From positions 125,682 through 189,681 of the forward strand of contig CAVSPA010000003.1 in assembly GCA_963729715.1 (NCBI GenBank): 64,000 nucleotides of DNA, read 5' to 3'. Below are positions 1,473 to 32,470 of the stretch, one piece after another. Each line of letters begins with the position of its first letter. Within the stretch, counting starts at the first letter, position 1. Both the position numbers and the translations under genes were made by a program. Under the pieces are notes generated by a model, which was given only the letters and a program-made list of their open reading frames with translations, did no database searches and was not told the origin of the DNA. Source of the DNA: an uncultured delta proteobacterium (GTDB lineage: Bacteria > Desulfobacterota > Syntrophia > Syntrophales > UBA2185).

Positions 1473-1979
1473 AGCGCTCAAGCAGAAGGATGAGAGAATC
1501 CTTTCGAGCTACGATCACGCAGCCATACGTATGCTATGCAAAAAGGCTGAGGGAAAACGCCCTGACTATGAAGAAGTTTTGAAAATGATGATAGGACAAT
1601 GTCTGTCGGAGGCGGAATTAAAGCAAAGTGATCCGGAGTCGTTCTGCTACAATCACTTTTATGCTTATAAATGCTGATCTCAACATATTTTAAAATAGAC
1701 CGTGGGCACGACTGAAGAGGCCTCTAACTCTTGAAATGACCGGGACGCCGCAGGGCACGCGGGCGGCACATAAGGGCCGGTCATATTTTGAGGTGCACGC
1801 GGAAAGAACAATCCTCTATCGCCAGTTCGTGTTGTTCTTCTCTCCTGTGGCGGAGGGTGCTGCCTCTTCACCCTCCGCCAGACACATTTCCCGGAGATTC
1901 TTTTCTGAATCGGAGAACTCTGATGGGCGCGGCCGGTTTGGAGATTACGAAGTGCGGCGCTCTTTGCGGAGGACCAGCC

Positions 1980-2216
1980 ATGAGATTTGTATTGATATTT
2001 TTTATTATTGCGCTTTTCTGTCAGGTCATCATTCATTTACCCGTCGAATCGCGGACAATATTCGGTCCGGTGCACTGGCAGTCGGAGCGTGAGAAGAAGG
2101 AATTTCATAGATTGCTCAAGAAACACGGGCAGCACAGACAGATATCCGTGATCTTTGATGACGGGTCAAAGACGTATTTCATCAACGACAAAGGCGAGAA
2201 GTGCCTCTTTAAGTAG
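1980..2216 (+). CDS. Small hypothetical exported protein (78 aa)
   Basis: GGAGG RBS before ATG 1980; hydrophobic N-terminal segment. Confidence 0.6.
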   Translation: MRFVLIFFIIALFCQVIIHLPVESRTIFGPVHWQSEREKKEFHRLLKKHGQHRQISVIFDDGSKTYFINDKGEKCLFK

Positions 2217-2300
2217 GATGGAAAAGGCTGGACAGAAAGCACGACCTTCTTATACATATTGGTATCTGACCTACATAGAAAGGCGAGAAGGATTGTGAAC

Positions 2301-2951
2301 ATGGCCAAGATGCGTCAAAAAGAAGTTCTCATCCCGGCAGGCAATCTGAACCTGGCGGGGATTTTCAGTCTTCCTCCCAAACCAACTGGCGTAATTGTCT
2401 TCGCCCATGGAAGCGGGAGCGGCCGTCTCAGCCCGCGCAATGCATTTGTTGCCGGGATATTGCAGGAGACCGGTTTCGCGACGCTTCTTTTTGATCTACT
2501 CGATCTCTCTGAAGAACTGGATCGCAGAAAGGTTTTTGACATCTCTCTTCTTGCCGAGCGCCTTCTTACGGGTGTGAGGTGGATGCAAACTGAAAGCGGA
2601 ATGCAGGGACTGAAGCTCGGCTACTTCGGAGCAAGCACCGGCGCGGCAGCCGCCCTCGAGGCCGCAGCTAAGGAGCCCAAAGGCATTGCCGCCATAGTGT
2701 CAAGGGGAGGGCGCCCCGACCTTGCCAGGGATTATCTTCCTAAGGTCAAGGTGCCGACCTTGCTAATCGTCGGAGGCAATGACAGGCCTGTCATTGCGAT
2801 GAACCGGGAAGCCTTTGAGAATCTCCAGTGCAAGAAAGACATCGTTGTCATACCGGGAGCGACCCATCTCTTTGAGGAGCCCGGCACCCTCGATGAGGTG
2901 GCCAAACTTGCTGCAAACTGGTTTCTCAAACACATGAGCCCCAAGAAATAG
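2301..2951 (+). CDS. Alpha/beta hydrolase (dienelactone hydrolase-like, type often linked to phosphoribosyltransferases)
   Basis: FAHGSGSGRLSPRN, GASTG nucleophile elbow, VSRGGRPDLA, GATHLFEE. Confidence 0.9.
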   Translation: MAKMRQKEVLIPAGNLNLAGIFSLPPKPTGVIVFAHGSGSGRLSPRNAFVAGILQETGFATLLFDLLDLSEELDRRKVFDISLLAERLLTGVRWMQTESGMQGLKLGYFGASTGAAAALEAAAKEPKGIAAIVSRGGRPDLARDYLPKVKVPTLLIVGGNDRPVIAMNREAFENLQCKKDIVVIPGATHLFEEPGTLDEVAKLAANWFLKHMSPKK

Positions 2952-2956
2952 TCCTC

Positions 2957-4198
2957 ATGCGTTTCCTTGCAGACCTTCACATCCATTCAAGATATTCCAT
3001 AGCGACGAGCACTGACCTGTCCCCCGAAACTATATGGAAATGGGCGCAGCTCAAAGGTATCACGGTCATCGGCACGGGGGATTTCACTCACCCGCTATGG
3101 CTGGCGGAATTAAGAAAGAAGCTGGAAAGAGCGGATAATGGACTATTCCGCCTGAAGAATAAATTCCACGGGCATGAAATTCCTGATGCATGTAAAGCCC
3201 CTGTATTCTTTCTTCTCTCCGCAGAGATAAGCTGCGTCTATAGAAAGGACGGGAAGACCAGGAAAGTACACTCCATCGTATTTGTCCGTGACTTTTCCGA
3301 TGCCGCAAAATTGACCAGGGTGCTGACAAAAATTGGGAGTCTCGCCTCGGACGGGAGACCCATCTTGAAGCTGTATGCAAAGGATCTCTTGAAAATAGTA
3401 CTGGATTCATCTGCTCATGCCATGCTTGTCCCTGCGCACGCGTGGACGCCGCATTTTTCCATATTCGGCGCGGCATCCGGATTTTCCTCTCTTGACGAAT
3501 GCTTTGAAGAATTGACGCCAAATATCTATGCTATTGAAACAGGACTCTCCTCAGACCCGGCCATGAATTGGCGGCTCTCATCCCTTACCAGGATAACCTT
3601 GATATCCAATTCCGATGCACATTCTCCATACACCATCGGCCGTGAAGCAAGCATATTTGACTGCGAAGTCTCATATGCGGCGATTACGGATGCCATAAAA
3701 TCTAAAAAAGGTCTTGTCGCTACAATCGAATTCTTCCCGCAGGAGGGGAAATATTATTACGACGGCCACCGCTCCTGCGCCGTAAGCATGAATCCGGCAG
3801 AAACGATCCGGCATAAGTATTTGTGTCCTGTGTGCGGCAGGAAATTAACCATGGGCGTCATGCATAGAATTGAACAGCTCGCGGACAGAAGGATGGGATT
3901 CAAGCCAAGAGGTGCACCGCCTTTTTATTCCGTAATCCCTCTCCGGGAGATTATTGCAGAAGTACTCCAGCGGGGCGTAAAAACGAAAACAGTCGATAAC
4001 GAATATATGAGATTGCTCAAGGAACTGGGCAACGAAATGAGCATCCTCATAACGGTACCTCTGAAAGATATAGGGCGTGCCGGTTCGCCCCGTCTTGCGG
4101 AGGCCGTCTCACGCATGCAGAGGGGAGATATCAATATCATGCCCGGTTTCGACGGCGAATACGGGAAGGTGAAAATCTTTGACAAAGCTGACAGGTGA
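2957..4198 (+). CDS. Endonuclease Q family protein (PHP domain plus zinc ribbon)
   Basis: ADLHIHSRYS, GTGDFTHP, PAHAWTP, ETGLSSD, SNSDAHS, CPVCG, PGFDGEYG. Confidence 0.9.
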   Translation: MRFLADLHIHSRYSIATSTDLSPETIWKWAQLKGITVIGTGDFTHPLWLAELRKKLERADNGLFRLKNKFHGHEIPDACKAPVFFLLSAEISCVYRKDGKTRKVHSIVFVRDFSDAAKLTRVLTKIGSLASDGRPILKLYAKDLLKIVLDSSAHAMLVPAHAWTPHFSIFGAASGFSSLDECFEELTPNIYAIETGLSSDPAMNWRLSSLTRITLISNSDAHSPYTIGREASIFDCEVSYAAITDAIKSKKGLVATIEFFPQEGKYYYDGHRSCAVSMNPAETIRHKYLCPVCGRKLTMGVMHRIEQLADRRMGFKPRGAPPFYSVIPLREIIAEVLQRGVKTKTVDNEYMRLLKELGNEMSILITVPLKDIGRAGSPRLAEAVSRMQRGDINIMPGFDGEYGKVKIFDKADR

Positions 4199-4360: not shown

Positions 4361-5005
4361 ATGGTCCTATTTAAGAACAGATTAGATGCCGGGACGAAAC
4401 TTGCGGAAAAAATTCATCTCGGAAAGGACGATAAGAATCTCATTGTCCTCGGCATACCGAGAGGCGGGATCTCCGTCGGCTACCCTATGGCCCTCAAGTT
4501 GAATTGTCCTTTGGAGCCGATAACGCTCCGCAAGCTTCCCATACCGCAGAATGACCAGATGGGCTTCGGCGCCGTCACCCTGAACAGGAAGGTCATGCTG
4601 AATAAAAGATTGATTGACGTCGGCTACGTTTCGAAGAATGAAATCGAGGAAATTGTGGACGAGGTATACGAAGAGGTGCTGCGGAGAGACAGATTATACC
4701 GCGGTTCAAAGCCATTCCCCGACCTGCAAGGCCGAACCGTTATCATCGTTGACGACGGGCTTGCCACGGGATTTACCATGCTTGCCGCCATAAGCTTCGC
4801 AAAGGAAAACCATGCCCTTAAAATCATATGCGCAGTTCCTGTCGCCCATGACGATGCCTACAATCTGGTGAGTCAGGAGGCCGATTCCATCATATGCCTC
4901 CACATCTACAGGGGATACTCCTTTGCCGTCGCCTCTTTTTACCAGAGTTTCTCTGATATGGAGGATAGAGAGGTCATATCGCTATTGAAAAAGATTCACA
5001 CTTAA
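4361..5005 (+). CDS. Phosphoribosyltransferase family protein
   Basis: LGIPRGG and PRPP-binding VIIVDDGLATGFTM; AVPV and FAVASFY motifs. Confidence 0.9.
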   Translation: MVLFKNRLDAGTKLAEKIHLGKDDKNLIVLGIPRGGISVGYPMALKLNCPLEPITLRKLPIPQNDQMGFGAVTLNRKVMLNKRLIDVGYVSKNEIEEIVDEVYEEVLRRDRLYRGSKPFPDLQGRTVIIVDDGLATGFTMLAAISFAKENHALKIICAVPVAHDDAYNLVSQEADSIICLHIYRGYSFAVASFYQSFSDMEDREVISLLKKIHT

Positions 5006-5120
5006 ACCAAGCATCCACAATACGATTTTTACTTGACCTGCAAAAACCACATCTCTATACTTGGCGCGCCTCAAAGACTTGATCCGCGCGATGGCAAGGC
5101 ATATAAGAATTTCATGAGAA

Positions 5121-6146
5121 GTGGTTTGGAACATGTTTAAATCAAGAGGAACAAAAGAAGCCCTGATCTTAATTGCCCTTTCCGCGATTACCCTTTTCTT
5201 CCCGTGCTGCCAGAAAGGGAGCGGGGGAAAATATGCCGGGCCCGTCGAAAAGATCACCTTGGGTGCGGTGGCTGTAGAAAGCTCATCTCTTATGTACATC
5301 GCTGACGCACTTGGTATGTTCAAGGCCCACGGACTTGATGTGACGGTCATAGATTTCCCCGATGGCGTAAAGGCGTCAGACGATCTTCTGAAAGACAGGC
5401 TTGATGTAGCAGCGGTATCGGACTTTGTATTTGTCACCAAGAGTTTCATGCGGAATGATCTCAGGATATTTGGATCTATCTTCCGTGGGGACACGTTTGA
5501 AGTCATCGCGAGGAAAGACCACGGGATCACTAAACCCGCCCATTTAAAAGGCAGACGGATCGGACTCACGCGCGGTACCGTTCTGGATTTCTTCATGGAG
5601 ACGTTCCTTTCCCTGCATGGTATCGCCCCAGGAAGTGTCAGGCTCGTGGACCTGAAGCCTTCTGAAATCCCGGCTGCCATCTCTTCCGGCGCTGTGGATG
5701 CTGTTTATGCATGGGAGCCTTATGCCGGACAGATTAAGAAAAGTCTCGGCCCGAATGCAGTAAACTGGCCAGGACAAAGCGGTCAGAGTTATCAATTCGT
5801 GCTGATTGCCAAAGAGGAATTCATCAAAGAACGGCAGATTGCGGTTGAACACCTCCTCAATGCCCTGTTGGAGGCGGAAAAATATTCCTCGGAGCACACT
5901 GCGGATGCCCAAAACATCATTGCCTCGCGACGGGGCTACGATCGTGCCTTGTTGCAATCAGTATGGAAACGGAGTGATTTCCGGGTAAGACTCGACCAGG
6001 ATCTCGTGATCCTGATGGAAGACGAAGCAACGTGGGCCATGCGCCGCAGACTGACAGGAAAAATGGAAATGCCGAATTATCTTCGTTTCATACATTGGGA
6101 AAACCTTGCGCGGATAAAGCCGGAGGCAGTTAGAATCATCCATTGA
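5121..6146 (+). CDS. Substrate-binding protein, SsuA/NMT1-like
   Basis: N-terminal anchor; LKGRRIG...GT and GAVDAVYAWEPY motifs. Confidence 0.85.
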   Translation: MVWNMFKSRGTKEALILIALSAITLFFPCCQKGSGGKYAGPVEKITLGAVAVESSSLMYIADALGMFKAHGLDVTVIDFPDGVKASDDLLKDRLDVAAVSDFVFVTKSFMRNDLRIFGSIFRGDTFEVIARKDHGITKPAHLKGRRIGLTRGTVLDFFMETFLSLHGIAPGSVRLVDLKPSEIPAAISSGAVDAVYAWEPYAGQIKKSLGPNAVNWPGQSGQSYQFVLIAKEEFIKERQIAVEHLLNALLEAEKYSSEHTADAQNIIASRRGYDRALLQSVWKRSDFRVRLDQDLVILMEDEATWAMRRRLTGKMEMPNYLRFIHWENLARIKPEAVRIIH

Positions 6147-6153
6147 GGGTATC

Positions 6154-8787
6154 ATGTCTATAAGAACCAAACTTTTGATCAATGTTCTCCTGATGGTAGT
6201 TTCTTTTCTTGTCATTGCATTCGTCCTCAACATTGCGAGAAATGGAATAGCCGACTCTGTCAGGAGAGCCGACTTCGCCGACCAGGTCGCCATCGGCGTC
6301 TCCGACATGAACACCATCACATACGACTACTTGATGAGGCCGGGTGAACGCGCCCGGCAGCAATGGCAAATGAAGCATGCCTCGCTTGATGATCTCATGA
6401 AAGGCGCAAATTTCAAGAGAAAAGAGGTGATGGTGATCCTGCAGAGGATCATGAAGAGCCATGAAGAGACGGCCCTGTTTTTTAAACAGCTCGTTGAAAA
6501 CAGCGAGAAAAAGAAACACGCCTCCGCCTCCCTACGGGCTTTTCTCGATGAAAATGATAAAAGGAACGTGACGCAGCTCATGGCCAGGTCTCAGATCATG
6601 GCCAGTGAATCGCACTTGTTTGCCCGGGAAGGCGAAGTTACAATTCAAAAAGCGCTTACACGGTCTGTCTGGTTTATCACCGTTACGCTTATCATAATGA
6701 TAGTGATTTCAGGCGCCATATCCTATTTCCTGAGCGGGAATATAACGGCATCTATCAAGACCCTCAAAAACGGAACGGAGATAATTGCCCGGGGCGATCT
6801 CGAATGCAGGGTGCCCATAAGAGGCCGGGATGAGATTGCGTCACTGTCCCTTTCATTCAATGAGATGGCAGGGAAACTGAAGAACGCCAATGCAAGTCTG
6901 CGGGCGGAGATAGAGGAAAGGGAAAAGGCCAGGGAAGCGCTCCGCATCGCCAGTCTTTATATGCGCAGCCTCATTGAGGTGAGCCTGGACCCGCTGGTTA
7001 CGATCAGCGCCGAAGGCAGGGTGATGGATGTGAACAAAGCCACGGAGGATGTTACCGGCGTGCCTCGTGAGAAACTCATCGGCAGTGATTTCTCCGACTA
7101 TTTCACCGAGCCCGAGAAGGCGCGGGAAGGATACAATAGGGTTTTCTCTCAGGGGTTTGTTAAAGACTATCCCCTCGCCATCCGCCATATGTCGGGCCGA
7201 ATAACAGAGGTTCTTTACAACGCCGCAACTTATGCGGACTATAAGGGAGAAGTGCAGGGGGTTTTCGCGGCAGCCCGGGACGTAACGAAACTCAGGGCGG
7301 CACAAAAGGCATTACAGAAATCATACGATGAATTAGAACGGCGGGTCGAGGGAAGAACGGCCGAGCTTCGGGAAAGCGAGGAACGCCTGACGCATGCGCT
7401 CGAAGCAGGTGAGCTCGGCATATGGGGACTCGACACGAAAACAGGAAAGGCCTGGCGTTCGCTCCGCCACGATCAGATCTTCGGTTACGATACAATTCTC
7501 CCTGAGTGGACATATCAGATGTTCCCCGAACATGTGGTAGCGGAAGATCGCAATGAAGTAAACGAGAAGTTCGGGTATGCGATATCGAGAGGCGCGGAAT
7601 GGAATTTTGAGTGCCGCATCCGCAGGACCGATGGGGACGTCCGCTGGATATGGGCGCAGGGAATGCCCAGGCTGAACGAACGGAATGAAGTCGTTTCCAT
7701 GGTCGGCCTCGTGAGGGATATTACCGGCCGCAAGCAGGCGGAAGCGGAAACGGAACGCTTGGCAACGTTTCCCAGGCTGAACCCGAGTCCTATAGTAGAG
7801 ACGGATATGGCGGGCAGTATCCAGTTTCTCAATCCTGCCGCCGAACGATTGTTCCCCAATATCCGTGAGCGCGGGCTCGCACATCCGTGGCTTGCACATT
7901 GGGAGGCGCTGGTGCGCGCCTGCCGTGAGGGAGGAGTGGAATGCGGCGAGTGTGAAGTGACCGCAGAAGGAAGATGGTACCTGCAAACGATACATTTTGT
8001 AAAAGATGTTGAACGCATCCGCATATACGGACTGGACATTACCGAGCGCCGATTGGCAGAAATGGAACTCAAGGAACGGACAGTTCAGCTCGAAGCGGCC
8101 AACAAGGAACTGGAGGGTTTCAGCTACTCGGTCTCCCACGACCTTCGGGCGCCACTGCGGGCCATAGACGGCTTCTCCATAAGACTCATACGGGACTTTG
8201 AAGGCAAGCTTGAAGAAGACGGCGTGAGAAAGCTTCATGCCATAAGCAGGAACGTCCAGCAGATGGGCCAGCTCATTGATGATCTTCTTTCTTTTTCAAG
8301 ATTGAGCCGTAAGGAAATGCATATGTCCCGGGTAAATATGGAAGCAATGGCGCACGATGTATGGAGCGAGATCAAAGAATTAAACCCGAACCGCGAGCTT
8401 GACGTCAAGATCGTCAATATGATACCTGTCTTTGGCGACGCCTCCCTCATCAGACAGGTCGTAGTCAATCTTCTTTCCAATGCCGTCAAGTTTACAAGGG
8501 GCAGAAAACCTGCTGCGATTGAAATAGGCAGTCGCAACGAGGGGAGTGAAATAACTTATTACGTGAAGGATAACGGTGCGGGTTTCGACATGAGATATTC
8601 CGACAAGCTCTTTGGCGTCTTCGAACGGCTGCATCGGCCGGACGAGTTTGAGGGAACGGGTGTTGGGCTCGCCATCGTCCAGCGCATTATTCACCGCCAC
8701 GGCGGCCGGGTTTGGGCGGAAGGCAAAGTGAACGGGGGAGCAACAATTTATTTTACCATTGCCGGAAAGGAGAAAACAATTGCTTGA
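6154..8787 (+). CDS. Membrane sensor histidine kinase (HAMP, several PAS, HisKA, HATPase)
   Basis: Two TM segments, HAMP (DEIASL...FNEM), PAS repeats, SVSHDLRAPL H-box, NLLSNAVKF, DNGAGF, GTGVGL. Confidence 0.95.
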   Translation: MSIRTKLLINVLLMVVSFLVIAFVLNIARNGIADSVRRADFADQVAIGVSDMNTITYDYLMRPGERARQQWQMKHASLDDLMKGANFKRKEVMVILQRIMKSHEETALFFKQLVENSEKKKHASASLRAFLDENDKRNVTQLMARSQIMASESHLFAREGEVTIQKALTRSVWFITVTLIIMIVISGAISYFLSGNITASIKTLKNGTEIIARGDLECRVPIRGRDEIASLSLSFNEMAGKLKNANASLRAEIEEREKAREALRIASLYMRSLIEVSLDPLVTISAEGRVMDVNKATEDVTGVPREKLIGSDFSDYFTEPEKAREGYNRVFSQGFVKDYPLAIRHMSGRITEVLYNAATYADYKGEVQGVFAAARDVTKLRAAQKALQKSYDELERRVEGRTAELRESEERLTHALEAGELGIWGLDTKTGKAWRSLRHDQIFGYDTILPEWTYQMFPEHVVAEDRNEVNEKFGYAISRGAEWNFECRIRRTDGDVRWIWAQGMPRLNERNEVVSMVGLVRDITGRKQAEAETERLATFPRLNPSPIVETDMAGSIQFLNPAAERLFPNIRERGLAHPWLAHWEALVRACREGGVECGECEVTAEGRWYLQTIHFVKDVERIRIYGLDITERRLAEMELKERTVQLEAANKELEGFSYSVSHDLRAPLRAIDGFSIRLIRDFEGKLEEDGVRKLHAISRNVQQMGQLIDDLLSFSRLSRKEMHMSRVNMEAMAHDVWSEIKELNPNRELDVKIVNMIPVFGDASLIRQVVVNLLSNAVKFTRGRKPAAIEIGSRNEGSEITYYVKDNGAGFDMRYSDKLFGVFERLHRPDEFEGTGVGLAIVQRIIHRHGGRVWAEGKVNGGATIYFTIAGKEKTIA

Positions 8788-9220
8788 CGATATAATCGAT
8801 GTCTTACTCATAGAGGATAACTCTGACGATGTGGATCTGACCCTTGACGCGCTTAATGTGCATAAACTTGCCAACCGCGTTAAGGTATTGCGGGACGGTG
8901 CGGAGGCGCTTGATTATATATTCTGCACAGGGCAGTTTGCGGACCGGGACATTTGCGTCGGTCCGAAGGTGATTCTCCTTGACCTCAAGCTTCCGAAGGT
9001 CGACGGCATTGAGGTCTTGCGCAGAATCAGGTCTGATGAGCGGACAAAGACACTGCCCGTCGTCGTTCTCACTTCTTCTAACGAACAGAAGGACCGGGTC
9101 GACAGTTACGAACTCGGGGTGAACAGTTATATCGTGAAACCAGTTGAATTTGAAAATTTTGCACGTGCGGTGGCCGACATAGGATTCTACTGGGTCTTGC
9201 TGAACAAAGTGCCTTTCTGA
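8780..9220 (+). CDS. Single-domain response regulator (Rcp1-like)
   Basis: LLIEDN, ILLDLKLPKVDG, LTSS, YIVKP; TTG start after AGGAG, overlapping the kinase stop. Confidence 0.92.
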   Translation: MLDDIIDVLLIEDNSDDVDLTLDALNVHKLANRVKVLRDGAEALDYIFCTGQFADRDICVGPKVILLDLKLPKVDGIEVLRRIRSDERTKTLPVVVLTSSNEQKDRVDSYELGVNSYIVKPVEFENFARAVADIGFYWVLLNKVPF

Positions 9221-9279
9221 GCTTTATCGGAATTCCCATTGCGGGCGAAGAGAAGCAACCCCATGCGTCGCAAACAGTC

Positions 9280-9332
9280 GTAGTGCAGGACTTTAGCCCT
9301 GGCAATTGAGCAGACATGAATGTCTGCACTGC
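9280..9332. repeat. Inverted GTAG-type REP doublet
   Basis: GTAGTGCAGGACTTTAGCCCTG followed by GCAGACATGAATGTCTGCACTGC (hairpin GCAGAC/GTCTGC). Confidence 0.5.
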
Positions 9333-9499
9333 GTTTTTTCATCTTCGTTTCATCCTCCTTTTACCCGCTTCATTCTTTTTCTCGTTTCACATAAGACATT
9401 TCGCAGTCCACAATAATGGATCCTGCCTATGGCATCTGGCAATAATTTGTAATATCCTTTGGCCAGGAGTATCGTGTGAATAGAAAGGAGAAGGGCCAC

Positions 9500-9685
9500 A
9501 TGAAAAGGCTATCCTCGAGAGATACTATATTGTTCATGGCCGGCATGCTTTTGCTTCTGCTCCCGGTAGTGACACGCGCCCAATCCGGGGGTCCGCCGCC
9601 GACTGAAAGGAGAGTCTTCGGCCCGGCCGCTCACGAGGGAGAGACTATACATCCGTCCGCCAGCGGCGGAAGTATGAGAAGATAG
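9500..9685 (+). CDS. Small hypothetical protein with signal peptide (possibly a fragment)
   Basis: AAGGAG upstream; hydrophobic stretch ending VTRA. Confidence 0.4.
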   Translation: MKRLSSRDTILFMAGMLLLLLPVVTRAQSGGPPPTERRVFGPAAHEGETIHPSASGGSMRR

Positions 9686-9695
9686 ATGTCTGTCG

Positions 9696-10502
9696 CTATT
9701 TCCTGAAAATCTTGTGCAGGAATTTTTGCAGTTCCTCCCGGGATTTCATGTCCGCATCGCGGTTGTATGCAATGGGGATATTGTACTTCTTTCCTAATTC
9801 ATCAGCCTCAGGATTAGTGAAGCTGTGAACCGCACCCGGATAGGAGATGAACTTGAAATCAGCGCCCGCTGCTTTCATCTCGTTTTTGAAAGCCTCGACC
9901 TGGTCTCTTGTAACGAAGTTGTCGTCCGCGCCGTGAAGGACGAGTATCTTTGCCTTGATGGAGCTCGGCTGGGCGGGCCTGACTGCCGTCAGGTTTCCAT
10001 GAAAGCTCGCAACACCCTTTAGATCAACTCCCTGCCGCGCCATGTTGAGCACAATCCCGCCGCCGAAGCAATAGCCAGTGGCTGCGATCCGCGTGGGGTC
10101 GGCGGCGGGTTGGCCTTTGAGAAAATCCATTGCTGCCATGAAGCGCGCCTTCCCGACGTCGAAATTCTTCATGAGCGCTGAAGAGAATTTTCCCGCATCG
10201 TCAGGATGCTGTGCTACCTTGCCTTCGCCGTACATGTCCACTACGAGGGCGGTATATCCCAGCTATGCGAACATGCGCGCCCGCTTGCGGGCGTAGTCAT
10301 TGAGGCCCCACCACTCATGGACTACCAACACTCCCGGGCGTTTCCCCTTCATATTTTCATCATAGGCTAGGTAGCTTTTCATCATGACACCCTCTGCGCT
10401 ATAGGACGCTTGCTTCCCCAGGATCCTTGGATCCGCATGGGCGATACCCGCCATGCACAGAATCAATGCAAAGACAGAGAGCATTCCGAATAAATTTTTC
10501 AT
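9696..10502 (-). pseudogene. Exported dienelactone hydrolase family protein with one in-frame TAG (10263-10265)
   Basis: VHEWWGLN...RARMFA*LGYTALVVDMYG...GYCFGG...SFHG...GAVHSFTNP; both halves are in the same frame. Confidence 0.85.
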
Positions 10503-10584
10503 GACCTCCCCCTTTCGCATTTTTTGATTTGATCATTTGGATTCTGAAACTGCCGGCAACCTTATCAGCTTCAGAACTATGATT

Positions 10585-11802
10585 CTAAAACAAAACGTTC
10601 AACACCTTGTCCATTTCCTTGAGGGTGGAGAGGATATCCGCGGCCTCATCCGGTTTCAGGGCCTCCGGCTTGATCACCGTGAGAAGAGACTGCACGGCAT
10701 CGATGGCTTCTCCGACACGCAGGTCATTATCCATATGCCGGGCAAAGGCAAGCTTAAGGCGGACGCCCGCTTGAGAACGCTCGGGGGGCTTGCCGGACGC
10801 CCTTGCCGCGATGCCATGCATGAGGCTTCTTAACTCGAGAAGATTCTCTTTTGCGCGGCGCATATTCTTCTCCGTATAGTTGATCCGCTTCCGATAGTGA
10901 TTCGCTATCAGGAAGAACCTGATTTCCGCGGGACTGTATCCTTCGGCGAGTAATGTCTCAGTATAGTAGATATTTCCCTTGCTCTTGGACATCTTCTGTC
11001 CCTGTATAAACAGATGCTGGCAGTGGAGCCAGTATCGCGCCATGTCATAAGGCCGCACGGACTCGAGAATGGCGCGCGTGTAGTCGTGATGGCGGATCAG
11101 GTTGTCGATTCCTCCGCAGTAGATAGAGAGGCTCTCCTGGAAATACCGGTTTACCATGCTTGCGTCCTGAATGTTCCATGCGGGCCTGCCTTGTCCTATT
11201 GATGTCTTCCAGTAGTCCCTTTCTCCCACCTTGCGGCCGTGCCAGAGAATAAAGTCGCCGAGATTCCAGCGCATGCCCGGATAGGTGTCTTTACTGAAGC
11301 GCCTTTTCGTCTTCGGCCACCGCGACATATCGAGGCCGTAAATTTTTCCGAAACCTTTAAATTTCAACGGATCAAAATAGACGTCGCCCCGATGCCAGTA
11401 TGCTGCGCCGCACGCGACAAGGCCCTTGATGATCTTTACCGCCTCGTCGACCGAGCGGGAAGCGCGGGGAAGATAATCCGGTTTCTTGATCTTGAGGAGG
11501 AACATTTCATCGAGAAAGGATTTGATATTTTCTTCTGTCAGCCGCTTTACTGTTGTATGCCTTTTTTCCGCTTCGAGGACAGCCTTATCCTCGATATCGG
11601 TGAAGTTCATTCCCCGTCTCACCTTACAGCCGGAATATTCAAGATATCTGACGAGGACATCCTCGAACGTGAATGTCCTGAAATTGCCGATATGAGCCCG
11701 CTGGTAGACGGAAGGGCCGCAGGTAAATATATTCACGACTTCCGGGTTAACGGGGTGAAAAACCTGCAATTGCTTTCCCATTGAATTGTAGAGGTGCAGC
11801 AT
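10585..11802 (-). CDS. Cysteinyl-tRNA synthetase-like protein (divergent, C-terminally short paralog)
   Basis: CGPSVY, HIGN, NFTDIEDK, DFILW and KMSKSKGN retained; GRPAWNIQD and DNLIRHHDYT replace GRPGWHIEC and DLxFPHHENE. Confidence 0.85.
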   Translation of the reverse strand: MLHLYNSMGKQLQVFHPVNPEVVNIFTCGPSVYQRAHIGNFRTFTFEDVLVRYLEYSGCKVRRGMNFTDIEDKAVLEAEKRHTTVKRLTEENIKSFLDEMFLLKIKKPDYLPRASRSVDEAVKIIKGLVACGAAYWHRGDVYFDPLKFKGFGKIYGLDMSRWPKTKRRFSKDTYPGMRWNLGDFILWHGRKVGERDYWKTSIGQGRPAWNIQDASMVNRYFQESLSIYCGGIDNLIRHHDYTRAILESVRPYDMARYWLHCQHLFIQGQKMSKSKGNIYYTETLLAEGYSPAEIRFFLIANHYRKRINYTEKNMRRAKENLLELRSLMHGIAARASGKPPERSQAGVRLKLAFARHMDNDLRVGEAIDAVQSLLTVIKPEALKPDEAADILSTLKEMDKVLNVLF

Positions 11803-11864
11803 TTATCGCTGTCTCCTTTCGCTGGTCATATAATCACGAAGCCCGACGTTTTAGGATTTCTCAT

Positions 11865-13292
11865 TTATTTCAATTCCAGCCTCTTCCATTTCCCCCGGTG
11901 AAACCACCAGGCCATCATCAGCCCCTGGCAGGCCATAGAGACCACCATGGCAGACCAGACGCCCGGAGCCCCGAATCCCATATACAGCGCCAGGAATACG
12001 GCAAGGGGGAGCCGGATTAACCACATGGTAATAATGATGACCCACATGGTCCCCCGTGTATCACCCGCTCCTTGAAGGCCACCTCCCATCACCGTACTTA
12101 AGGCGAGGAAGGGTTCGGAAACCATGTTGAATCTGAGATACCGCGCCGTTTCCGCAAGGACGGCCGGCTCCGAAGTCAGTGTGGATGCGAAGCTCTCCGC
12201 CCAGATAAAGATGATAACGGCCATAATGCTGGTAACCACTATCCCCAAGCCGGCAAGCTTCCAGCCCATCTTTTCGGCCCTTTCCGGATCACCGGCGCCC
12301 ATGTTCTGGCCCACGATGACCGATGCAGCCATATTAAAGGCAAAGGCAGGAAGGAAAATGATCGCCTCAATCCGAAGCCCATTGGCAATAGACGCGAGGG
12401 CGGTGATGCTTGCCTCTTTCAATCTTGCGAGAACATTATACAGCAGTATGCTCGCCATATTCCAGGCGACTTGAAGAAATCCGGCGGGCCAGCCAATGTT
12501 GAAAATTGTTTTGATGGTATCAAGAGATACTGCCCAGAAATGTGAAAAAACCCGGCGCCACCTCTCACTGATCCACAAGAAGACCAGATTCATCAGGGTT
12601 CCCAACAGCGTCGAAATGGCCGTAGAAAAAGCAATTCCCGCGTAACCGAGTTTCGGAAAAGGGGGAATGCCGAACACAAGCAGGAAATCCAGGGCGATGT
12701 TTACGATACTGATAATAAACATTGTTACGAGGGGTTTTTTCACCTCCGCGCCGGCACGGAAAATAGTATTCGAAATGATTAGCAGGTAATTGGGTCCGAG
12801 AGCGAAGGCGAAGATCTGCAAGAAATTTTCGGCAATGTCCGTAATCTCCGGCGGGAAGCCGGCCGCTGATATGATGCCGCGATAAAATATGAAGCAAACC
12901 GCAGTGAGGGCGACGGAAATCAAGAGTCCCAGAAGGAGCGACTGCTTTGCAGCATCAATGGCCCGCTCCTCGTCTCTGGCGCCGATGGCCCTCGAAATCA
13001 CGGCCAATGAGCCTATGCTGATGGCATTTGCAACAATGATGACGAGGAAATAGATCTGGGTAATGAAGCCGACTGCCGCTTGAACATTCGCGCCGATAAG
13101 ACCGGCGACGTAGACATCGGTGAAGCCGACCAGGAAACCGAAGATCATCATGATGAGCATGGGCCAAGAAAGTTTCCAGATGCCGGTCCAGATATTTCCC
13201 GTGGTAACGTCGATGATCCGGTCTTTGAACATTGCCATAGAACCCGCGCGTGAGAACTTTTTCCGCAGAATGCAGAGTAGGGGGTATGTCAA
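11865..13292 (-). CDS. MATE family efflux transporter (start may be a downstream ATG)
   Basis: About 12 TM segments; LSWP, NIALDFLLVFG, VIVGQNMGAG, LQGAGDT motifs. Confidence 0.92.
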   Translation of the reverse strand: MTYPLLCILRKKFSRAGSMAMFKDRIIDVTTGNIWTGIWKLSWPMLIMMIFGFLVGFTDVYVAGLIGANVQAAVGFITQIYFLVIIVANAISIGSLAVISRAIGARDEERAIDAAKQSLLLGLLISVALTAVCFIFYRGIISAAGFPPEITDIAENFLQIFAFALGPNYLLIISNTIFRAGAEVKKPLVTMFIISIVNIALDFLLVFGIPPFPKLGYAGIAFSTAISTLLGTLMNLVFLWISERWRRVFSHFWAVSLDTIKTIFNIGWPAGFLQVAWNMASILLYNVLARLKEASITALASIANGLRIEAIIFLPAFAFNMAASVIVGQNMGAGDPERAEKMGWKLAGLGIVVTSIMAVIIFIWAESFASTLTSEPAVLAETARYLRFNMVSEPFLALSTVMGGGLQGAGDTRGTMWVIIITMWLIRLPLAVFLALYMGFGAPGVWSAMVVSMACQGLMMAWWFHRGKWKRLELK

Positions 13293-13302
13293 GCGATGTT
13301 AG

Positions 13303-14298
13303 CTATGCCGATATTGAGCTCATCAGATAGTTCTGAAGGGTTTGATACATCTCAACATCAGTGTCAACCAAAGAAGCGCCAATCTTGGTTCCTTGATCAG
13401 ACCGAAACACACGTTGGGGCACGCACTGGATGCTAAGGGGCTTCTTACTTTCAGGCAGTGCGAAGGTGATGGTCATCCTGGACGCATCCCCGTCTCCCTG
13501 CTTCTTGAATTTATAGGTGCTCGGGATCGATATCTGTAATCCGCCTAGAGAAATATCTACGACCAATGCGGTTTGTAACAGCGCCTTATCCTCCAATCCA
13601 CAGCCGCCCACCAAAGCGGGAAGAGAGACGGCCTTTCTCGGATGCCGGCGTTTTTCTCCCTCCACTTTCTTGTTCCGGGAAAATTCAGGATAGAGCTTCT
13701 TCACGCAATCGGGACAGATGCTGTGCGTAAAATCGAGAGCGGAATGGCTCTTCAGATAGGATTCAACTTGTATCCAGTAGCCGTCATCATTGCGTATATT
13801 CTTGCAGTTAGCGCAGATGGGGAGAAGTCCGCTCAATGTTTTTATATTATCGAGCGCCTCTTTCAGTTCCGTTATTAGTCTTTCCTTCTCCCTTATATTG
13901 TTGAAGCGTTCTATGGAATATTTTATGGAACGATGAAGCAGAGTGCTGTCCGTCCTGTTCTTATTTAGATAGTCCTGAACACTGTGCTGCAAAGCCTGTA
14001 TGGCTGTGGCTTCATCATCGAGGCCGGTGAGGACGATAATGGGTGCATTCTTTTCTCTCTCCCCCATTTTTTTTACGGTGTCAAGGCCCTTGCTGTCAGG
14101 GAGGGACAAGTCGAGGAGAATTACATCCACCACATTTTCAGCCAAATATTTTAAGGCGTCACGGAGCCGTTCTTTGTGGACCAATTCGTAATTGACATCT
14201 TTAGATCCGTTTACGTCGGCCTGATAGATCATATCTTGAATCAATACGGCATCCGTTATGTTATCCTCGACGAGCAGTATCCTTAGTGCATTTTCCAT
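13303..14298 (-). CDS. Response regulator with CxxC...CxxC module and C-terminal PilZ domain
   Basis: REC (VEDN, LLDLSLPD); LLPICANCKNIR...HSICPDC; RRHPR and DISLGG c-di-GMP-binding motifs. Confidence 0.85.
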   Translation of the reverse strand: MENALRILLVEDNITDAVLIQDMIYQADVNGSKDVNYELVHKERLRDALKYLAENVVDVILLDLSLPDSKGLDTVKKMGEREKNAPIIVLTGLDDEATAIQALQHSVQDYLNKNRTDSTLLHRSIKYSIERFNNIREKERLITELKEALDNIKTLSGLLPICANCKNIRNDDGYWIQVESYLKSHSALDFTHSICPDCVKKLYPEFSRNKKVEGEKRRHPRKAVSLPALVGGCGLEDKALLQTALVVDISLGGLQISIPSTYKFKKQGDGDASRMTITFALPESKKPLSIQCVPQRVFRSDQGTKIGASLVDTDVEMYQTLQNYLMSSISA

Positions 14299-14321
14299 TA
14301 TCCTGTCCTCTTGATTTGTAT

Positions 14322-15986
14322 TCAGGTTAGGGGTCTGCCGTTCAGCCTCTGGTAAACCTTCACGTACTCATCAACCATAGTGTCTAAACCGTATCTCTTT
14401 CTTGCCTCCCTCATGATCCTCTTTATCTGCTGCTCTCTTATCTCCAGAGGTTTCCTGTGGAACTGCACACTCATAGAGAGTCCGTGCCATAACCCGCCAG
14501 GGTCGTAATTACAGAAGAGGAATCCGTTTCCCTCGTCGCAAGAAGCGCCATCGCACCTCAATTGTAACTCCTCTATCTTATCGCTATAACCGCCGGTGTC
14601 ACGATTCGTCGCCGTGGCGCCGAAGAGATTGCCTATCTGGTCTATCTGACCGCAAGGCTCGTAGAGGGATGCACCGAATACATCGCTCGCCGCTGCGTAG
14701 CCGAGCATGGAGAGGGGTTCGCTGAATCGCTGGTACGTTATCTTGCCGCCCGAGGCGCAGGCGATCCTCCCCATAATCTCCTCGTGGGTCTGATCGCCCT
14801 CAACGCCATTACCGACAACGGCAATCTGAACGTCGCCGTTTTCTATGACAAATCTAAGAGCAATGTCTTCGAGAAGCTCACATCCTTTCTGCGTTTCATC
14901 GAGCCGCGATGGCCAGTAGAGAAGTATCGCATCCGGATTCACGACGAGTCCCGTCCTCTTCTGAAATTCCACCAGGTTTTCCCTCTTTGCCGTCATGACA
15001 TCGTCATCGGGACCGTACTTCCTTGCAAGGTGCTCACACCTTTCCGGATACATCCGAGGGGACGGCGCATTGATGATAGAGAATACCGCACCGTGATTGT
15101 ACTTTTCCTTGACTTCCTGTCTAACGCTCGGAGGGATGAATGATCTATCCAGAAAATAGTCTTCGATGATCTCCCTGAGGAACTTTTCCCCGACAAAATT
15201 GACCAGGGTGGCGCTCTTAATGGCTGTAGCCTGGGAGTCTATGCATATCCTTCCATTTTCTTTCGAGAAGTAGATGTTCCATGTGAGGCTGTCGATATCT
15301 ACGCCAAAAAGCATATCTAAAGGGACGTGGCCTGTGTGAACGTTGTGCACCGTGTGCAGTACGGGGCAGTCCCTCGATTTGGCGTAGGCCGTAACGGCGC
15401 CGCCTGCCATCCAGTCGTGGCTGTGCACGATCAGCCTCCCTCCGCACCTCGCCCGCACTGTCTTGATGGTGTTGTTTACCAGTTCCTTCTGAAATTCAGC
15501 GGCATTGGAAAGCGGATCCCCAGAATATGGGCTGAGAAGGTTCGCATAGATAGACGAGCTTACCAGGTGGATCTTGTCAGGATCAACCTTATCTCTTACC
15601 TGACGCCATGCATGTTCATCCATGCCGCTCTCCTCTTTGAAGCGTCTTCTCAGATTAATCGTCGCCAGGTGGCAGTTGATCCCCCGCGCCAGAAGCCCCT
15701 CGGAGAGCGCGGAAACTACCTCTCCCAAGCCCCCCGACTTGCCGGATATGTATCTCGCAAGACTTCCCATGTCTTCCGGCAGCCGGCCTGTCTCCGGAGC
15801 TACAAGGAGCACCGCCGTCTTTCCTGCCTTCTTCAGGATCGTAAATGTCTTTACATTCTTCATCCCCTTCACAGGACGGTTCCCTTGACGCCGGCGCGGC
15901 CGGTTTTTTACATACATACCCTGAGGGTTATCCGCCCTGTAGCCGGAAGCCATATTCATCTGGGGCTTATGAAGTTTTCTTGCCAT
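14322..15986 (-). CDS. glgA: Glycogen/starch synthase (divergent; start uncertain)
   Basis: KSGGLGEV, HSHDW, HTVHN, SRL...QKG, SLYEPCG, TGG motifs of GT5. Confidence 0.8.
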   Translation of the reverse strand: MARKLHKPQMNMASGYRADNPQGMYVKNRPRRRQGNRPVKGMKNVKTFTILKKAGKTAVLLVAPETGRLPEDMGSLARYISGKSGGLGEVVSALSEGLLARGINCHLATINLRRRFKEESGMDEHAWRQVRDKVDPDKIHLVSSSIYANLLSPYSGDPLSNAAEFQKELVNNTIKTVRARCGGRLIVHSHDWMAGGAVTAYAKSRDCPVLHTVHNVHTGHVPLDMLFGVDIDSLTWNIYFSKENGRICIDSQATAIKSATLVNFVGEKFLREIIEDYFLDRSFIPPSVRQEVKEKYNHGAVFSIINAPSPRMYPERCEHLARKYGPDDDVMTAKRENLVEFQKRTGLVVNPDAILLYWPSRLDETQKGCELLEDIALRFVIENGDVQIAVVGNGVEGDQTHEEIMGRIACASGGKITYQRFSEPLSMLGYAAASDVFGASLYEPCGQIDQIGNLFGATATNRDTGGYSDKIEELQLRCDGASCDEGNGFLFCNYDPGGLWHGLSMSVQFHRKPLEIREQQIKRIMREARKRYGLDTMVDEYVKVYQRLNGRPLT

Positions 15987-16119
15987 GGTAATCTTCACTG
16001 CACGCGTCCTTCGTGCGAAAACAGGGTGAATATCCTTTCGCCCCAAGATAGATCACTTGCTGCACTGCTCCGGGTGGAAGGCCAATTTATTAGTATTACA
16101 CTACCATTGGCAGCGCTAA

Positions 16120-16222: not shown

Positions 16223-17185
16223 TTATTTGGAATTTTTATCCTTCAGCACGACCTCCTGCTTTTTCAGAAACAGCTCCGTATCAGGCGGCACCGAGTCAGT
16301 AATCCAAACGTTACCGCCGATCACCGAACGGGCTCCGATGACGGTCTTCCCGCCCAGCACGGTGGCATTTGCATAGATGATAGCATCATCTTCAATGGTC
16401 GGATGGCGCTTCTTGTTTCGGAGGCTCTCCAGCTCTTCGCGGCCGAGCGACAGGGCGCCGAGTGTCACACCCTGATAGATCCTGACACGTTTGCCGATGT
16501 TGGTCGTCTCTCCGATTACTACACCCGTACCGTGATCGATGAAGAAACTCTCTCCGATATCGGCGCCGGGATGGATATCTATTCCTGTTCTGCTGTGGGC
16601 GTGTTCCGTCATGATGCGCGGGATAAGGGGAATGTCGCTCGTGTGCAGCTGATGAGCAATGCGATAGACGGTGATGGCGAAAAGCCCCGGATAACTGAAG
16701 ATGATTTCATCGAAGCTCTTGGCGGCGGGGTCTCCTTCATAGGCCGCCTTAATGTCCGTAGCAAGCAGGACACGCAATTTGGGCATGCCGCTGAGAAAGC
16801 CGACGGCGGCCTGCTGGCCGCGCTCTTCGCAGTTTGTGCAGACCTGATTGTGTCGGATGCAGTCATGCCGTATGGCGAGCATAATCTGTTCGGAGAGGGC
16901 TTCAAAAAGAGCTGTTAACTCCTGACCGAAATAGTATCCCACGTTGATCTCATCCACACGTGTGCGAATAAAATACCCGGGATAGAGAATGCGGCACGCC
17001 ATATGTACGGCGTCGATAATGGCCTCCCGCGAGGGAATGGGTTCGGGACCCACGTGGTCAAAGCAATCGTGGCGGGTGCAGGACGCCGTCAGCTCGTCAA
17101 CAATGGGCGGTATTTCGTCGCGAAATTTTTGGGCTATCCCAATATCCATTTTGCACTGATCCGTCTTAGCTTTGTCATCATCCAT
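16223..17185 (-). CDS. cysE: Serine O-acetyltransferase
   Basis: GDPAA, YPGLFAITVYRIAH, TGIDIHPGA, FFIDHGTGVVIGET, YQGVTLG, KRHPT. Confidence 0.93.
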   Translation of the reverse strand: MDDDKAKTDQCKMDIGIAQKFRDEIPPIVDELTASCTRHDCFDHVGPEPIPSREAIIDAVHMACRILYPGYFIRTRVDEINVGYYFGQELTALFEALSEQIMLAIRHDCIRHNQVCTNCEERGQQAAVGFLSGMPKLRVLLATDIKAAYEGDPAAKSFDEIIFSYPGLFAITVYRIAHQLHTSDIPLIPRIMTEHAHSRTGIDIHPGADIGESFFIDHGTGVVIGETTNIGKRVRIYQGVTLGALSLGREELESLRNKKRHPTIEDDAIIYANATVLGGKTVIGARSVIGGNVWITDSVPPDTELFLKKQEVVLKDKNSK

Positions 17186-17201
17186 GGTGATTTTCCCTCC
17201 T

Positions 17202-18383
17202 TTACTGGACCGAGCATACCTGGTCGGCTGCATTCCAGTATGGCGACATGCTGCGCAACCTTTCGATTATGGAAGGCAGCTTTTCTGCGACAAAGTCTAT
17301 TTCTTCTTCCCTATTATAGATTGAGAGGCTGAACCTGATGGAGCCGTGGGCCATGGTGAAAGGAACACCCATGGCGCGGAGCACATGGGATGGCTGCAAT
17401 GACCCGGACGTGCAGGCGGAACCGGACGATGCGCATATCCCATAGTCGTCCATAAGCAGCAGGATGGCCTCGCCCTCGACGAACTCAAAGCTGATGTTTG
17501 TCGTATTGGGGAGCCTGTGCAGTCTGGTTCCATTCACCCGGCTGTTGGGAATGCGGGAGAGAGTCTCGGCCTCCAGTTTGTCCCGGAGGTGCAGAACTAA
17601 TCTGTTCTCTGTATCCATGTTGCGTGCCGCCAATTCGCAGGCCTTCCCCAGTCCGATAATGCTGGGTGTGTTTTCCGTACCGCCCCGACGCCCATTCTCC
17701 TGATGCCCGCCAATAAGGAAAGGCGAGAACCGCGTTCCCCTGCGGACATAAAGGATGCCGATGCCCTTTGGCGCATGAAGCTTATGACCCGATATGGAGA
17801 GCATGTCGATGGCATTCGTCTTCATGTTTATGGGAATCTTTCCCACTGCCTGGACTGCATCTGTGTGAAACAGAATGCCTCTTTCCGCTGCAAGCTCTGC
17901 GGCCTTTTCCACGGGAAAGAGAACCCCCGTTTCGTTGTTGGCCCACATGAGGCTGACGATGGCCGTATCCGGCGTGAGAGCCCTTTCATACTGGGCCATG
18001 TCGAGAATGCCGTCCTTGTCAACAGGGAGCTCCGTGATGCGGTAGCCCTGTCTGGAAAGATGGGCACACAGAGACTTGACCGCGGGATGCTCGACGCGGC
18101 TTGTCAAAACGTGGCGCCTGTCGGGATGGGCCGCCAAGGCTGACCGGATGGCTGCATTGTCGCTTTCCGTACCGCAGCTCGTGAAGATGATTTCCTCCGG
18201 CCCTGCGCCGATCAGGGCTGCCGCTTGTTCGCGGGCCTCACGTATTTTTCGTCCGACCTGACCTCCGAAGGAATGCATGCTGGACGGGTTTCCGTAAAGG
18301 TCGCGGAAATACGGGAGCATGACATCGAGAACCTCTTCTGCAACCTGCGTTGTTGCATTGTTGTCAAGATAGATCGTCTTCAT
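17202..18383 (-). CDS. nifS: Cysteine desulfurase
   Basis: YLDNNATT, HTDAVQ, SGHKLH (PLP Lys), SSGSACTS. Confidence 0.95.
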   Translation of the reverse strand: MKTIYLDNNATTQVAEEVLDVMLPYFRDLYGNPSSMHSFGGQVGRKIREAREQAAALIGAGPEEIIFTSCGTESDNAAIRSALAAHPDRRHVLTSRVEHPAVKSLCAHLSRQGYRITELPVDKDGILDMAQYERALTPDTAIVSLMWANNETGVLFPVEKAAELAAERGILFHTDAVQAVGKIPINMKTNAIDMLSISGHKLHAPKGIGILYVRRGTRFSPFLIGGHQENGRRGGTENTPSIIGLGKACELAARNMDTENRLVLHLRDKLEAETLSRIPNSRVNGTRLHRLPNTTNISFEFVEGEAILLLMDDYGICASSGSACTSGSLQPSHVLRAMGVPFTMAHGSIRFSLSIYNREEEIDFVAEKLPSIIERLRSMSPYWNAADQVCSVQ

Positions 18384-31187: not shown

Positions 31188-31323
31188 GCTTAAATATATA
31201 TTGAATCGAGAAAACGGCTTATTCACGGGCGCGATGTGCAGCGGAAAAATGTACTCGAGGTGTGTCCGAGTCCATGCAGTTTATAACAGCAGCGACATAT
31301 ATGTGTAGAGGAAGGAGCTTCTG

Positions 31324-32454: not shown

Positions 32455-32470
32455 CACAAAGGGCAGACAC

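Follow-up and report, generated by a model that had tools for sequence, protein, structure and literature searches.

A conserved family of cysteinyl-tRNA synthetase paralogs with a rewritten amino-acid pocket and, in its core clade, usually a MATE exporter upstream

A gene on the minus strand of a 64-kb stretch of DNA from an uncultured bacterium of the order Syntrophales (contig CAVSPA010000003.1; the whole stretch is called the window here) encodes a 405-aa paralog of cysteinyl-tRNA synthetase (CysRS). This protein, the ligase in the following, belongs to a family in which the adenylation core is kept, a dedicated exporter stands alongside, and a ligand for the editing-free cysteine selectivity of CysRS is replaced. 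Judged from its sequences, this well-defined family is a synthetase paralog with altered chemistry. On a plausible reading, which we hold to fall somewhat short of probable, the ligase would be an active adenylate-forming enzyme with changed amino-acid selectivity that serves a non-tRNA acceptor and whose product would leave via the MATE exporter.

To our knowledge, new chemistry has been worked out for only a few synthetase paralogs, namely MshC, GluQRS, CysRS* and the amino acid:carrier-protein ligases, and each of them opened a pathway. The substrate of the present family could likewise bring to light a novel metabolite that syntrophic and sulfur-cycling anaerobes of peat, soil and sediment export, or a new type of RNA aminoacylation.

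Motifs, metal site and architecture of the ligase

The open reading frame (ORF) of the ligase begins with ATG, and a ribosome-binding site (AAAGGAG) lies 8-9 nt upstream. Each motif was translated at its own window coordinates, which gave the following features:

10585..11802, minus strand: CysRS-derived ligase without anticodon-binding domain, 405 aa (ORF listing, PF01406 and TIGR00435 profiles, AlphaFold2 model)
11683..11721, minus strand: stretch from C28-G29-P30 through H37-I-G-N40 (C28, G29, H37, G39 and N40 invariant in 36 family rows)
11713-11721, minus strand: CGP, C28-G29-P30, first metal ligand and alpha-amino contact (translation)
11683-11694, minus strand: HIGN, H37-I-G-N40, the class I HIGH motif (translation)
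11275..11319, minus strand: family-specific basic motif of the CP domain, WPKTKRRFSKDTYPG, including a two-residue insertion (alignment and translation)
11164..11178, minus strand: WNIQD replacing WHIEC, with D213 in place of C209 (alignment to CysRS chains, translation)
11080..11094, minus strand: RHHDY replacing PHHEN; H238 corresponds to the ligand H234, and the next residue after the motif, T242, replaces E238 (alignment, translation)
10981..10995, minus strand: KMSKS loop (translation; K270, M271, S272 and K273 invariant in the family)

Translation and alignment thus recovered what an earlier note on this DNA had described, that is, intact HIGN and KMSKS motifs, the CGP of the first zinc ligand and the HH pair. 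HIGN is no special feature of the ligase, since many canonical CysRS in the same table also carry it. In HMMER alignments to solved CysRS chains, GRPAWNIQD aligns with GRPGWHIEC, and IYCGGIDNLIRHHDYT aligns with IHGGG(S/N)DL(M/I)FPHHENE, which upholds the proposed rewriting of WHIEC to WNIQD and of PHHENE to RHHDYT. In E. coli numbering, which was checked on the alignment, C28 and H234/H235 are retained, C209 is changed to D and E238 to T. Of the four zinc ligands of E. coli CysRS, C28, C209, H234 and E238, two are kept (C28 and H234), so that the ligase lacks the complete CysRS ligand set.

The match of the ligase begins at position 1 of both the cysS profile and the E. coli chain and runs to position 401 of 466 in the former and to residue 392 of 461 in the latter, and a Pfam scan found no match to the anticodon-binding domain DALR_2 (PF09190) in it. 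Because coverage stops at these points and DALR_2 is missing, the protein ends after the helical bundle, just as the earlier note had read it. A match to the SelB wing domain PF09105 in the same scan reached 18.9 bits at a cut-off of 25 and was treated as noise.

The profile scores place the ligase outside the named CysRS-type enzymes. It matches the tRNA-synt_1e domain (PF01406), in which its HIGH and KMSKS class I motifs lie, with 242.8 bits over residues 15-318, well past the gathering threshold of 27 bits. Against the cysteine--tRNA ligase equivalog TIGR00435 it scores 298.2 bits (300.5 bits in the genome scan), under the curated cut-off of 340, as do all three family representatives scored (P0121, P0124 and P0129, with 315.6, 270.1 and 278.5 bits). 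The MshC model TIGR03447 gives 175.9 bits, far below its cut-off of 485.1. The best sequence match among solved chains is the CysRS 8QHP (1e-66, 33% identity). The earlier note had proposed modelling the structure, and the AlphaFold2 model is confident (pLDDT 94.6, pTM 0.93) and has the CysRS fold: it matches 8QHP with a TM score of 0.89, the E. coli CysRS-tRNA complex with 0.88 and MshC with 0.83-0.84. Matches in the ESM Atlas were solely other nameless anticodon-less CysRS-like clusters and MshC.

With canonical CysRS (TIGR00435; PDB 1LI5/1U0B, 8QHP) the ligase shares the Rossmann core, the CP domain, the SC fold and the helical bundle, but it differs in its score below the cut-off, the missing anticodon domain, the incomplete zinc ligand set, a remodelled CP domain and its basic character. 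MshC, the L-cysteine:GlcN-Ins ligase of mycothiol synthesis (PDB 3C8Z, 8HFM), is likewise a CysRS paralog of about 410 aa without anticodon domain and has the same fold, the HIGH and KMSKS motifs and the alpha-amino contacts via G, T/S and T: G29, S31 and T68 of the ligase match the contacts G44, T46 and T83 described for MshC. MshC, however, has a Cys/Cys/His zinc site, whereas the family has Cys/Asp/His along with further pocket changes. In MshC, zinc is reported to be coordinated by C43, C231 and H256 together with the substrate thiol only (PMC9736012), and the position equivalent to C231 is Asp in the ligase. The family also differs from MshC in its other gene context and its strongly basic charge, and it was not found in Actinomycetota-labelled records.

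By analogy to MshC, the metal site is probably retained, because MshC manages with three protein ligands and the ligase keeps C28, H238 and an invariant Asp. This presumably harder site, together with the changed surroundings (N, Q, S, Y, R, D and Y in place of H, E, D, H, P, E and N), suggests that the preference of the ligase is probably not one of pure thiolate selection.

A conserved and patchily distributed family

A word-indexed search returned mostly 405-aa proteins with 60-91% identity to the ligase, and an exhaustive search over cluster representatives added members at 42-47%; the family as a whole extends down to 41-47%. Public records offer no names for these proteins beyond "class I tRNA ligase family protein" and "cysteinyl-tRNA synthetase". 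The latter label is wrong, and annotation pipelines should at least stop naming the family genes cysS. A literature search, whose coverage left out most subscription journals, yielded no description of the family, and a review of such paralogs names CysRS* and MshC as the only ones derived from CysRS (PMC9437257).

Aligning 56 rows of the family with 62 rows of other CysRS revealed how strictly the pocket changes are fixed. N210, Q212, D213, R237, D240 and Y241 are present in 100% of the family rows and in at most 3% of the others, which have H (97%), E (97%), C (97%), P (95%), E (84%) and N (79%) at the matching positions. Further family substitutions are S31 for T, S226 for D (D222), Y228 for H (H224) and Y280 for T, and the position of PHHENE reads RHHDY[TSN] throughout. 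In all, the metal and side-chain site is ringed by about a dozen invariant changes that are specific to the family. Additional changes affect the CP domain (W162, P163, K166, F169, T173, the insertion P175-G176, W179 and H188). Since the pocket changes are fixed in every family row, they are not due to chance, and the conservation in homologs on which the earlier note had made its proposal depend is borne out within a single clade.

The same sequences argue that catalysis is kept. Across 36 family sequences, which cover 41-91% identity, HIGN, KMSKS and G230-G231-x-D233 never vary, nor do C28, D213 and H238. All seven further divergent members from whole genomes (44-57% identity) retain CGPS..H.GN, GRP[AS]WN[IV]QD, GG.DN..RHHDY and KMSKS. 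Such invariance of all adenylation residues would be unexpected in a non-catalytic pseudo-enzyme that merely binds a ligand, be it in sensing, in regulation or as an accessory subunit of the exporter. The loss of a canonical metal ligand and of the anticodon domain would fit such a protein, as would a gene context that varies outside the core clade, but we regard this explanation as very unlikely.

In a FastTree tree of 81 rows, all 17 family rows form one clade with a support of 100 and a long stem (0.67). Next to it stand proteins of similar length, about 405-413 aa, that also lack the anticodon domain, first P0140, then P0138, P0148 and P0154 (support 96-98). Three of these four keep WHIEC along with HHENE or HHDNE, and P0148 has WNVQC. 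With the cysS model, P0138, P0140 and P0154 reach about 354-393 bits, over the cut-off, and P0148 278.5 bits. A metagenome scan with P0140 found loci of 36-53% identity; the 37 that were checked are mostly full-length CysRS of about 452-480 aa, 34 of them with PHHxxE, and a phylum-wide genome search found no close relative.

Some CysRS-like proteins show mixed motifs. P0148 (405 aa) combines WNVQC with NHHENT and looks like an intermediate, P0227 (409 aa) has WHILD, and P0164, a full-length protein of 462 aa, has WHIED with HHECE.

Loci related to that of the ligase carry metagenome-assembled genome (MAG) labels of Syntrophales/Syntrophaceae, Desulfatiglandales, Desulfobacteraceae, Thermodesulfovibrionales, Nitrospirota, Ca. 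Sulfobium, Thermoplasmata, Spirochaetales and Leptospirales. Going by these labels, the family is conserved over at least two bacterial phyla and into archaeal MAGs. A family profile run on 151 sampled genomes of the order gave family-level matches in 23. Its scores are bimodal: 20 genomes lie at 628-738 bits and all else at or below 318 bits, apart from three genomes with fragments or split copies (G103, G007 and G122). In a sample of 401 genomes of the phylum, 14 match at E<=1e-100, one of which (G421) is a canonical CysRS. The patchy matches in both sets mark the ligase gene as accessory.

Every listed family-bearing genome of the order shows further CysRS matches, and the same holds for the genome of the ligase itself. 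Scanning its 3.76-Mb assembly with the cysS model revealed three CysRS-like genes: the ligase, a canonical cysS on contig 7 with 563.9 bits, and a second gene on contig 7 with 390.9 bits. The latter makes up the C-terminal portion of a 769-aa protein, which in its N-terminal portion is, by eye, cysteine-synthase-like. The canonical cysS that the earlier note had expected elsewhere in the genome is thus present, and the ligase is not the sole CysRS. Since it also scores below the cysS cut-off, it is not the housekeeping enzyme; on these scores, it is a non-housekeeping accessory CysRS paralog.

These observations bear on the idea that the ligase is a spare but true CysRS for tRNA-Cys, for example a metal-sparing back-up under zinc scarcity. 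Zinc-sparing paralogs of zinc enzymes exist in bacteria; the ligase descends from CysRS with its catalytic core kept, and its basic surface might offset the missing anticodon domain. We nevertheless consider this highly improbable. The pocket carries about a dozen invariant changes, the score lies below the cysS cut-off, the family occurs in few genomes of the order and always beside other CysRS genes, and no zinc-regulon gene stands among the annotated neighbours. The domain that is missing would moreover read the GCA anticodon, reported as a major identity element for CysRS (PMC5389517).

The cysteine-synthase-CysRS fusion mentioned above lies outside the window (G000 contig C7:56132-57517; locus L002, ORF 1492..3801, minus strand). 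Its CysRS part is full-length, scores over the cut-off and has the motifs HVGN, WHLEC, FPHCENV and KMSRS. Most of the 151 order genomes contain open frames of about 770-850 aa with a match to the CysRS profile, alongside a canonical cysS of about 490 aa, and our literature search found no description of such a fusion.

The upstream MATE exporter and the likely acceptor

Directly upstream of the ligase gene and on the same strand lies a gene for a MATE-family exporter, as the earlier note had seen and as the ORF listing and Pfam confirm:

11865..13238, minus strand: MATE-family exporter, upstream partner of the ligase (PF01554, 1.2e-49; TIGR00797, 244 bits, over cut-off)

The ORF is listed to 13292 from a TTG, and the ATG at 13238 is the start in homologues, from which we take it. 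By NCBIfam the exporter is generic, and it is closest to EmmdR/YeeO. We counted MATE homologues by frame-independent tblastn, on the same strand and within 2.5 kb upstream of the ligase gene, in loci with at least 1.5 kb of upstream DNA. A homologue is present in 26 of 45 related loci (25 of 44 after merging L039 and L051, which are one place), and all 26 MATE-linked ligases are at least 57% identical to that of the window. The identity of each MATE to the window MATE tracks that of its ligase (r=0.98, n=24), and the pairs include MAGs labelled Syntrophales and Nitrospirota. Twenty-one MATE sequences are tightly conserved, with a mean column identity of 65%. No other neighbour is conserved across phyla. 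Among the 151 order genomes, a MATE ortholog occurs in 26, including 17 of the 23 that bear the family.

In L051 (G007:C1:1068000-1077000, identical to L039), which comes from a single-contig genome of the same genus, the MATE and ligase genes are each split into two ORFs, either because both have decayed together or through frameshift errors of long reads. In G037, an open frame of 1113 aa that suggested a MATE-ligase fusion proved to be an overlapping open frame in GC-rich DNA.

Two lines favour a non-tRNA acceptor and an exported product for the ligase, namely the missing anticodon domain and the co-inherited exporter. According to the mechanism that we propose, the ligase would adenylate an alpha-amino acid or a close analogue in an ATP-dependent reaction, with a side-chain preference that departs from the purely zinc-thiolate-based choice of CysRS, and probably by use of a harder Cys/Asp/His metal site. 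The acyl group would then be transferred to an acceptor that is not picked by its anticodon. In the core clade, at 55% identity or more, ligase and exporter would form a two-gene unit, in which the upstream MATE antiporter carries the product out of the cytoplasm. The product may be a soluble aminoacyl conjugate or, given the positive charge of the ligase, a membrane-bound one.

There are precedents for this proposal. MshC itself is described as a tRNA-independent CysRS paralog, and operons that combine MetRS paralogs with efflux transporters, from which exported metabolites were predicted, have been reported (PMC2922099). The latter resemble the present case in the placement of a class I synthetase paralog beside an exporter and in the predicted export of an amino-acid-derived metabolite, but they start from another parent synthetase and contain tailoring enzymes, whereas only the exporter is conserved with the ligase. 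By analogy, we take it that the ligase is an enzyme that works like the known repurposed class I paralogs.

Several observations weigh against this proposal. From sequence, the ligase can be assigned neither a metal nor a substrate. The MATE gene was not found in 19 of the 45 loci, including those of all 10 members below 50% identity, and kinship among the genomes inflates the MATE-ligase counts. Nine order genomes have the MATE ortholog but no ligase, and in six the reverse is true; given the 17 genomes that share both, the pair is strongly but not obligately linked. No potential acceptor-making gene is conserved beside the pair in the annotated related loci. The basicity of the family, which is common to its nearest relatives, fits tRNA binding at least as well as membrane binding. 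A complex prediction for MATE and ligase returned a score of 0.00 ("no answer") and weighs neither way on binding.

The family is very basic, a trait on which the earlier note is silent. Its median isoelectric point (pI) is 9.47 at a net charge of +17, compared with 6.0 and -8.5 in the other CysRS rows, and residues 158-182 of the CP domain, a segment that faces the acceptor stem in CysRS, have a median net charge of +5 in the family vs -2 in other CysRS. The nearest relatives, in which the anticodon domain is missing but the cysteine pocket intact, match this basicity (pI 9.4-10.3). Such a charge points to binding of a polyanion, perhaps RNA or an anionic membrane surface.

Because of this charge, of the kinship with anticodon-less CysRS forms and of the CysRS* precedent, a tRNA or another RNA as acceptor is a serious rival to an exported conjugate. 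The ligase would then be an anticodon-blind, synthetase-like enzyme in the manner of CysRS* or GluQRS, which would hold an acceptor stem by electrostatic attraction and load it with cysteine or another residue, possibly in stress or translation control. The sister forms that group with the family pass the cysS cut-off with their WHIEC/HHENE pocket intact. CysRS* of Desulfobacterales, again a second CysRS copy without anticodon domain from delta-proteobacteria-type anaerobes, can serve a dedicated tRNA by changes in CP1 (PMC5389517). We consider an RNA acceptor a real possibility, albeit a doubtful one.

The doubt arises from the gene context. ARAGORN detected no tRNA gene in the 64-kb window and only three, all unrelated (Leu-CAA and twice Arg-ACG), in 39 related loci, and no selB-like gene turned up among the annotated neighbours. 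CysRS*, in contrast, is reported to lie downstream of selC*, a tRNA-Cys gene, and selB* and is thought to cysteinylate this dedicated tRNA (PMC5389517), a context absent from the ligase locus. The ligase instead has a MATE neighbour, which would have no role if the acceptor were an RNA, and its C209 is replaced; this comparison is based on the description of CysRS*, not on its sequence. The CP1 motif of CysRS* is given as PTVS in place of MSGA (PMC5389517). The roughly equivalent CP stretch of the family reads WPK(T/K)KRRF, a placement that is approximate, as no CysRS* sequence was aligned. By its profile scores and gene context, the ligase can be placed only in the broad tRNA-synt_1e domain family; it lacks the score, the ligand set and the anticodon domain of cysS, the score and the Cys/Cys/His site of MshC and the selC*-selB* context of CysRS*. 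GluQRS (YadB), described as a truncated GluRS that glutamylates queuosine in tRNA-Asp, also is a class I paralog that lost its anticodon domain and gained a new acceptor; it retains the amino-acid specificity of its parent, whereas the amino-acid site of the ligase family is changed and no evidence links the family to a tRNA target.

The tRNA complement points in the same direction. The genome has 48 tRNAs, including a single tRNA-Cys (GCA) and one tRNA-Sec, and an Rfam scan of 10 related loci for riboswitches or leader RNAs gave only two tRNAs. An odd 72-nt tRNA-like gene lies on another contig (G000 contig C16:17367-17439; L059:2368-2439; Rfam tRNA, 54 bits). Its anticodon is GCU, its anticodon stem contains two U-U mismatches, position 33 is C, and a long variable arm is missing. 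This gene was rejected as a partner of the ligase: it has only weak matches, in three of 150 other order genomes, all without the family, and none in the family-bearing genomes of the same genus. ARAGORN found no candidate for a dedicated tRNA near the ligase gene.

Translation-dormancy genes near some loci could speak for an RNA acceptor. A baeRF gene (PF18845) precedes MATE in four loci of Syntrophales-type MAGs (L019, at 4575-6363, L020, L036 and L048), where a CxxCxxCC gene (PF03692) accompanies it, and HPF-CSD fusions occur in L053 and L056; an association with HPF genes has been reported for several baeRF-1 families (PMC6514570). The baeRF genes, however, are confined to Syntrophales-type loci and also precede MATE in three loci without the ligase (L061, L062 and L063), one of them with the CxxCxxCC gene. 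In L019, L048 and L063, this gene sits between baeRF and MATE.

A variant of the RNA reading, in which the family would be a new aaRS-like enzyme that loads tRNA or another RNA, blind to the anticodon, with a non-cysteine amino acid chosen by the Cys/Asp/His metal site, seems clearly unlikely to us. If this variant were true, the family would represent a natural, horizontally mobile route of non-canonical aminoacylation in anaerobic bacteria and archaea. In an alternative about as unlikely, a membrane lipid or envelope precursor would be aminoacylated independently of tRNA and then flipped by the MATE protein, a member of the MOP superfamily, which would make the pair a two-gene analogue of MprF.

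Cysteine could also remain the substrate. In an MshC-type ligase, the Cys/Asp/His zinc would bind the thiolate, and cysteine would be joined to an amine-bearing small molecule to yield a low-molecular-weight thiol or conjugate in anaerobes. This reading draws support from the three protein ligands with which MshC makes do, from the invariance of C28 and H238 and from the preserved alpha-amino contacts. Redox and stress genes stand beside some members: rubrerythrin upstream in four loci, an OsmC-hydrolase in two, and at further loci rubredoxin reductase and a disulfide reductase of the dihydrolipoyl-dehydrogenase type. In the window (16223-19204, minus strand) and in its close kin, nifU, nifS and an EpsC-type serine O-acetyltransferase gene lie 4-7 kb upstream of the ligase. 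Even so, we judge this rather unlikely. In addition to the low MshC score, C209, which CysRS and MshC both keep, is Asp in every member, and the replacement of H206, E208, E236 and N237 exceeds what a shift of acceptor alone would need. No mshA/B/D-like set of glycosyltransferase, deacetylase and acetyltransferase is conserved with the family across lineages, although mshA/B/D were not searched for, and a cytoplasmic redox buffer would need no exporter. An exported conjugate of a differently selected amino acid thus stays our preferred, if tentative, interpretation.

The hydrolase gene and other neighbours

Downstream of the ligase gene, the window contains a further gene that the earlier note had counted as part of a make-export-hydrolyse module:

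9696..10520, minus strand: dienelactone-hydrolase-family gene with a signal-peptide-like N-terminus (ORF listing and Pfam; in-frame TAG at 10263-10265)

The codon that is TAG here encodes Glu in seven and Gly in two of nine relatives, and it represents either a nonsense mutation or an assembly error. The hydrolase gene accompanies that of the ligase solely in near relatives from the Syntrophales (10 loci). We therefore rejected it as a part of the module: the link to the upstream MATE stands over two phyla, whereas the hydrolysis step is unsupported, because its gene is limited to close relatives and is split by the TAG in the window. Accordingly, the conservation of the neighbourhood that the note had asked about holds for the MATE gene and fails for the hydrolase outside close relatives.

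Other neighbours vary. CNNM/CorC, like the HPF-CSD fusion and the OsmC-hydrolase, is found at two loci, and Hsp20 and radical-SAM genes occur at further ones. A promoter and terminator scan of 9200-14600 gave counts that were not above those of shuffled sequences and defined no operon boundary. Following the nifU-nifS cluster of the window, a glycogen-synthase-like GT5 gene (14322-16046, minus strand) scores below the glgA cut-offs, and it is followed in turn by a response regulator gene with a PilZ domain (13303-14298, minus strand). The G+C content of 30001-36000 is 0.57-0.60, compared with about 0.50 in the rest of the window.

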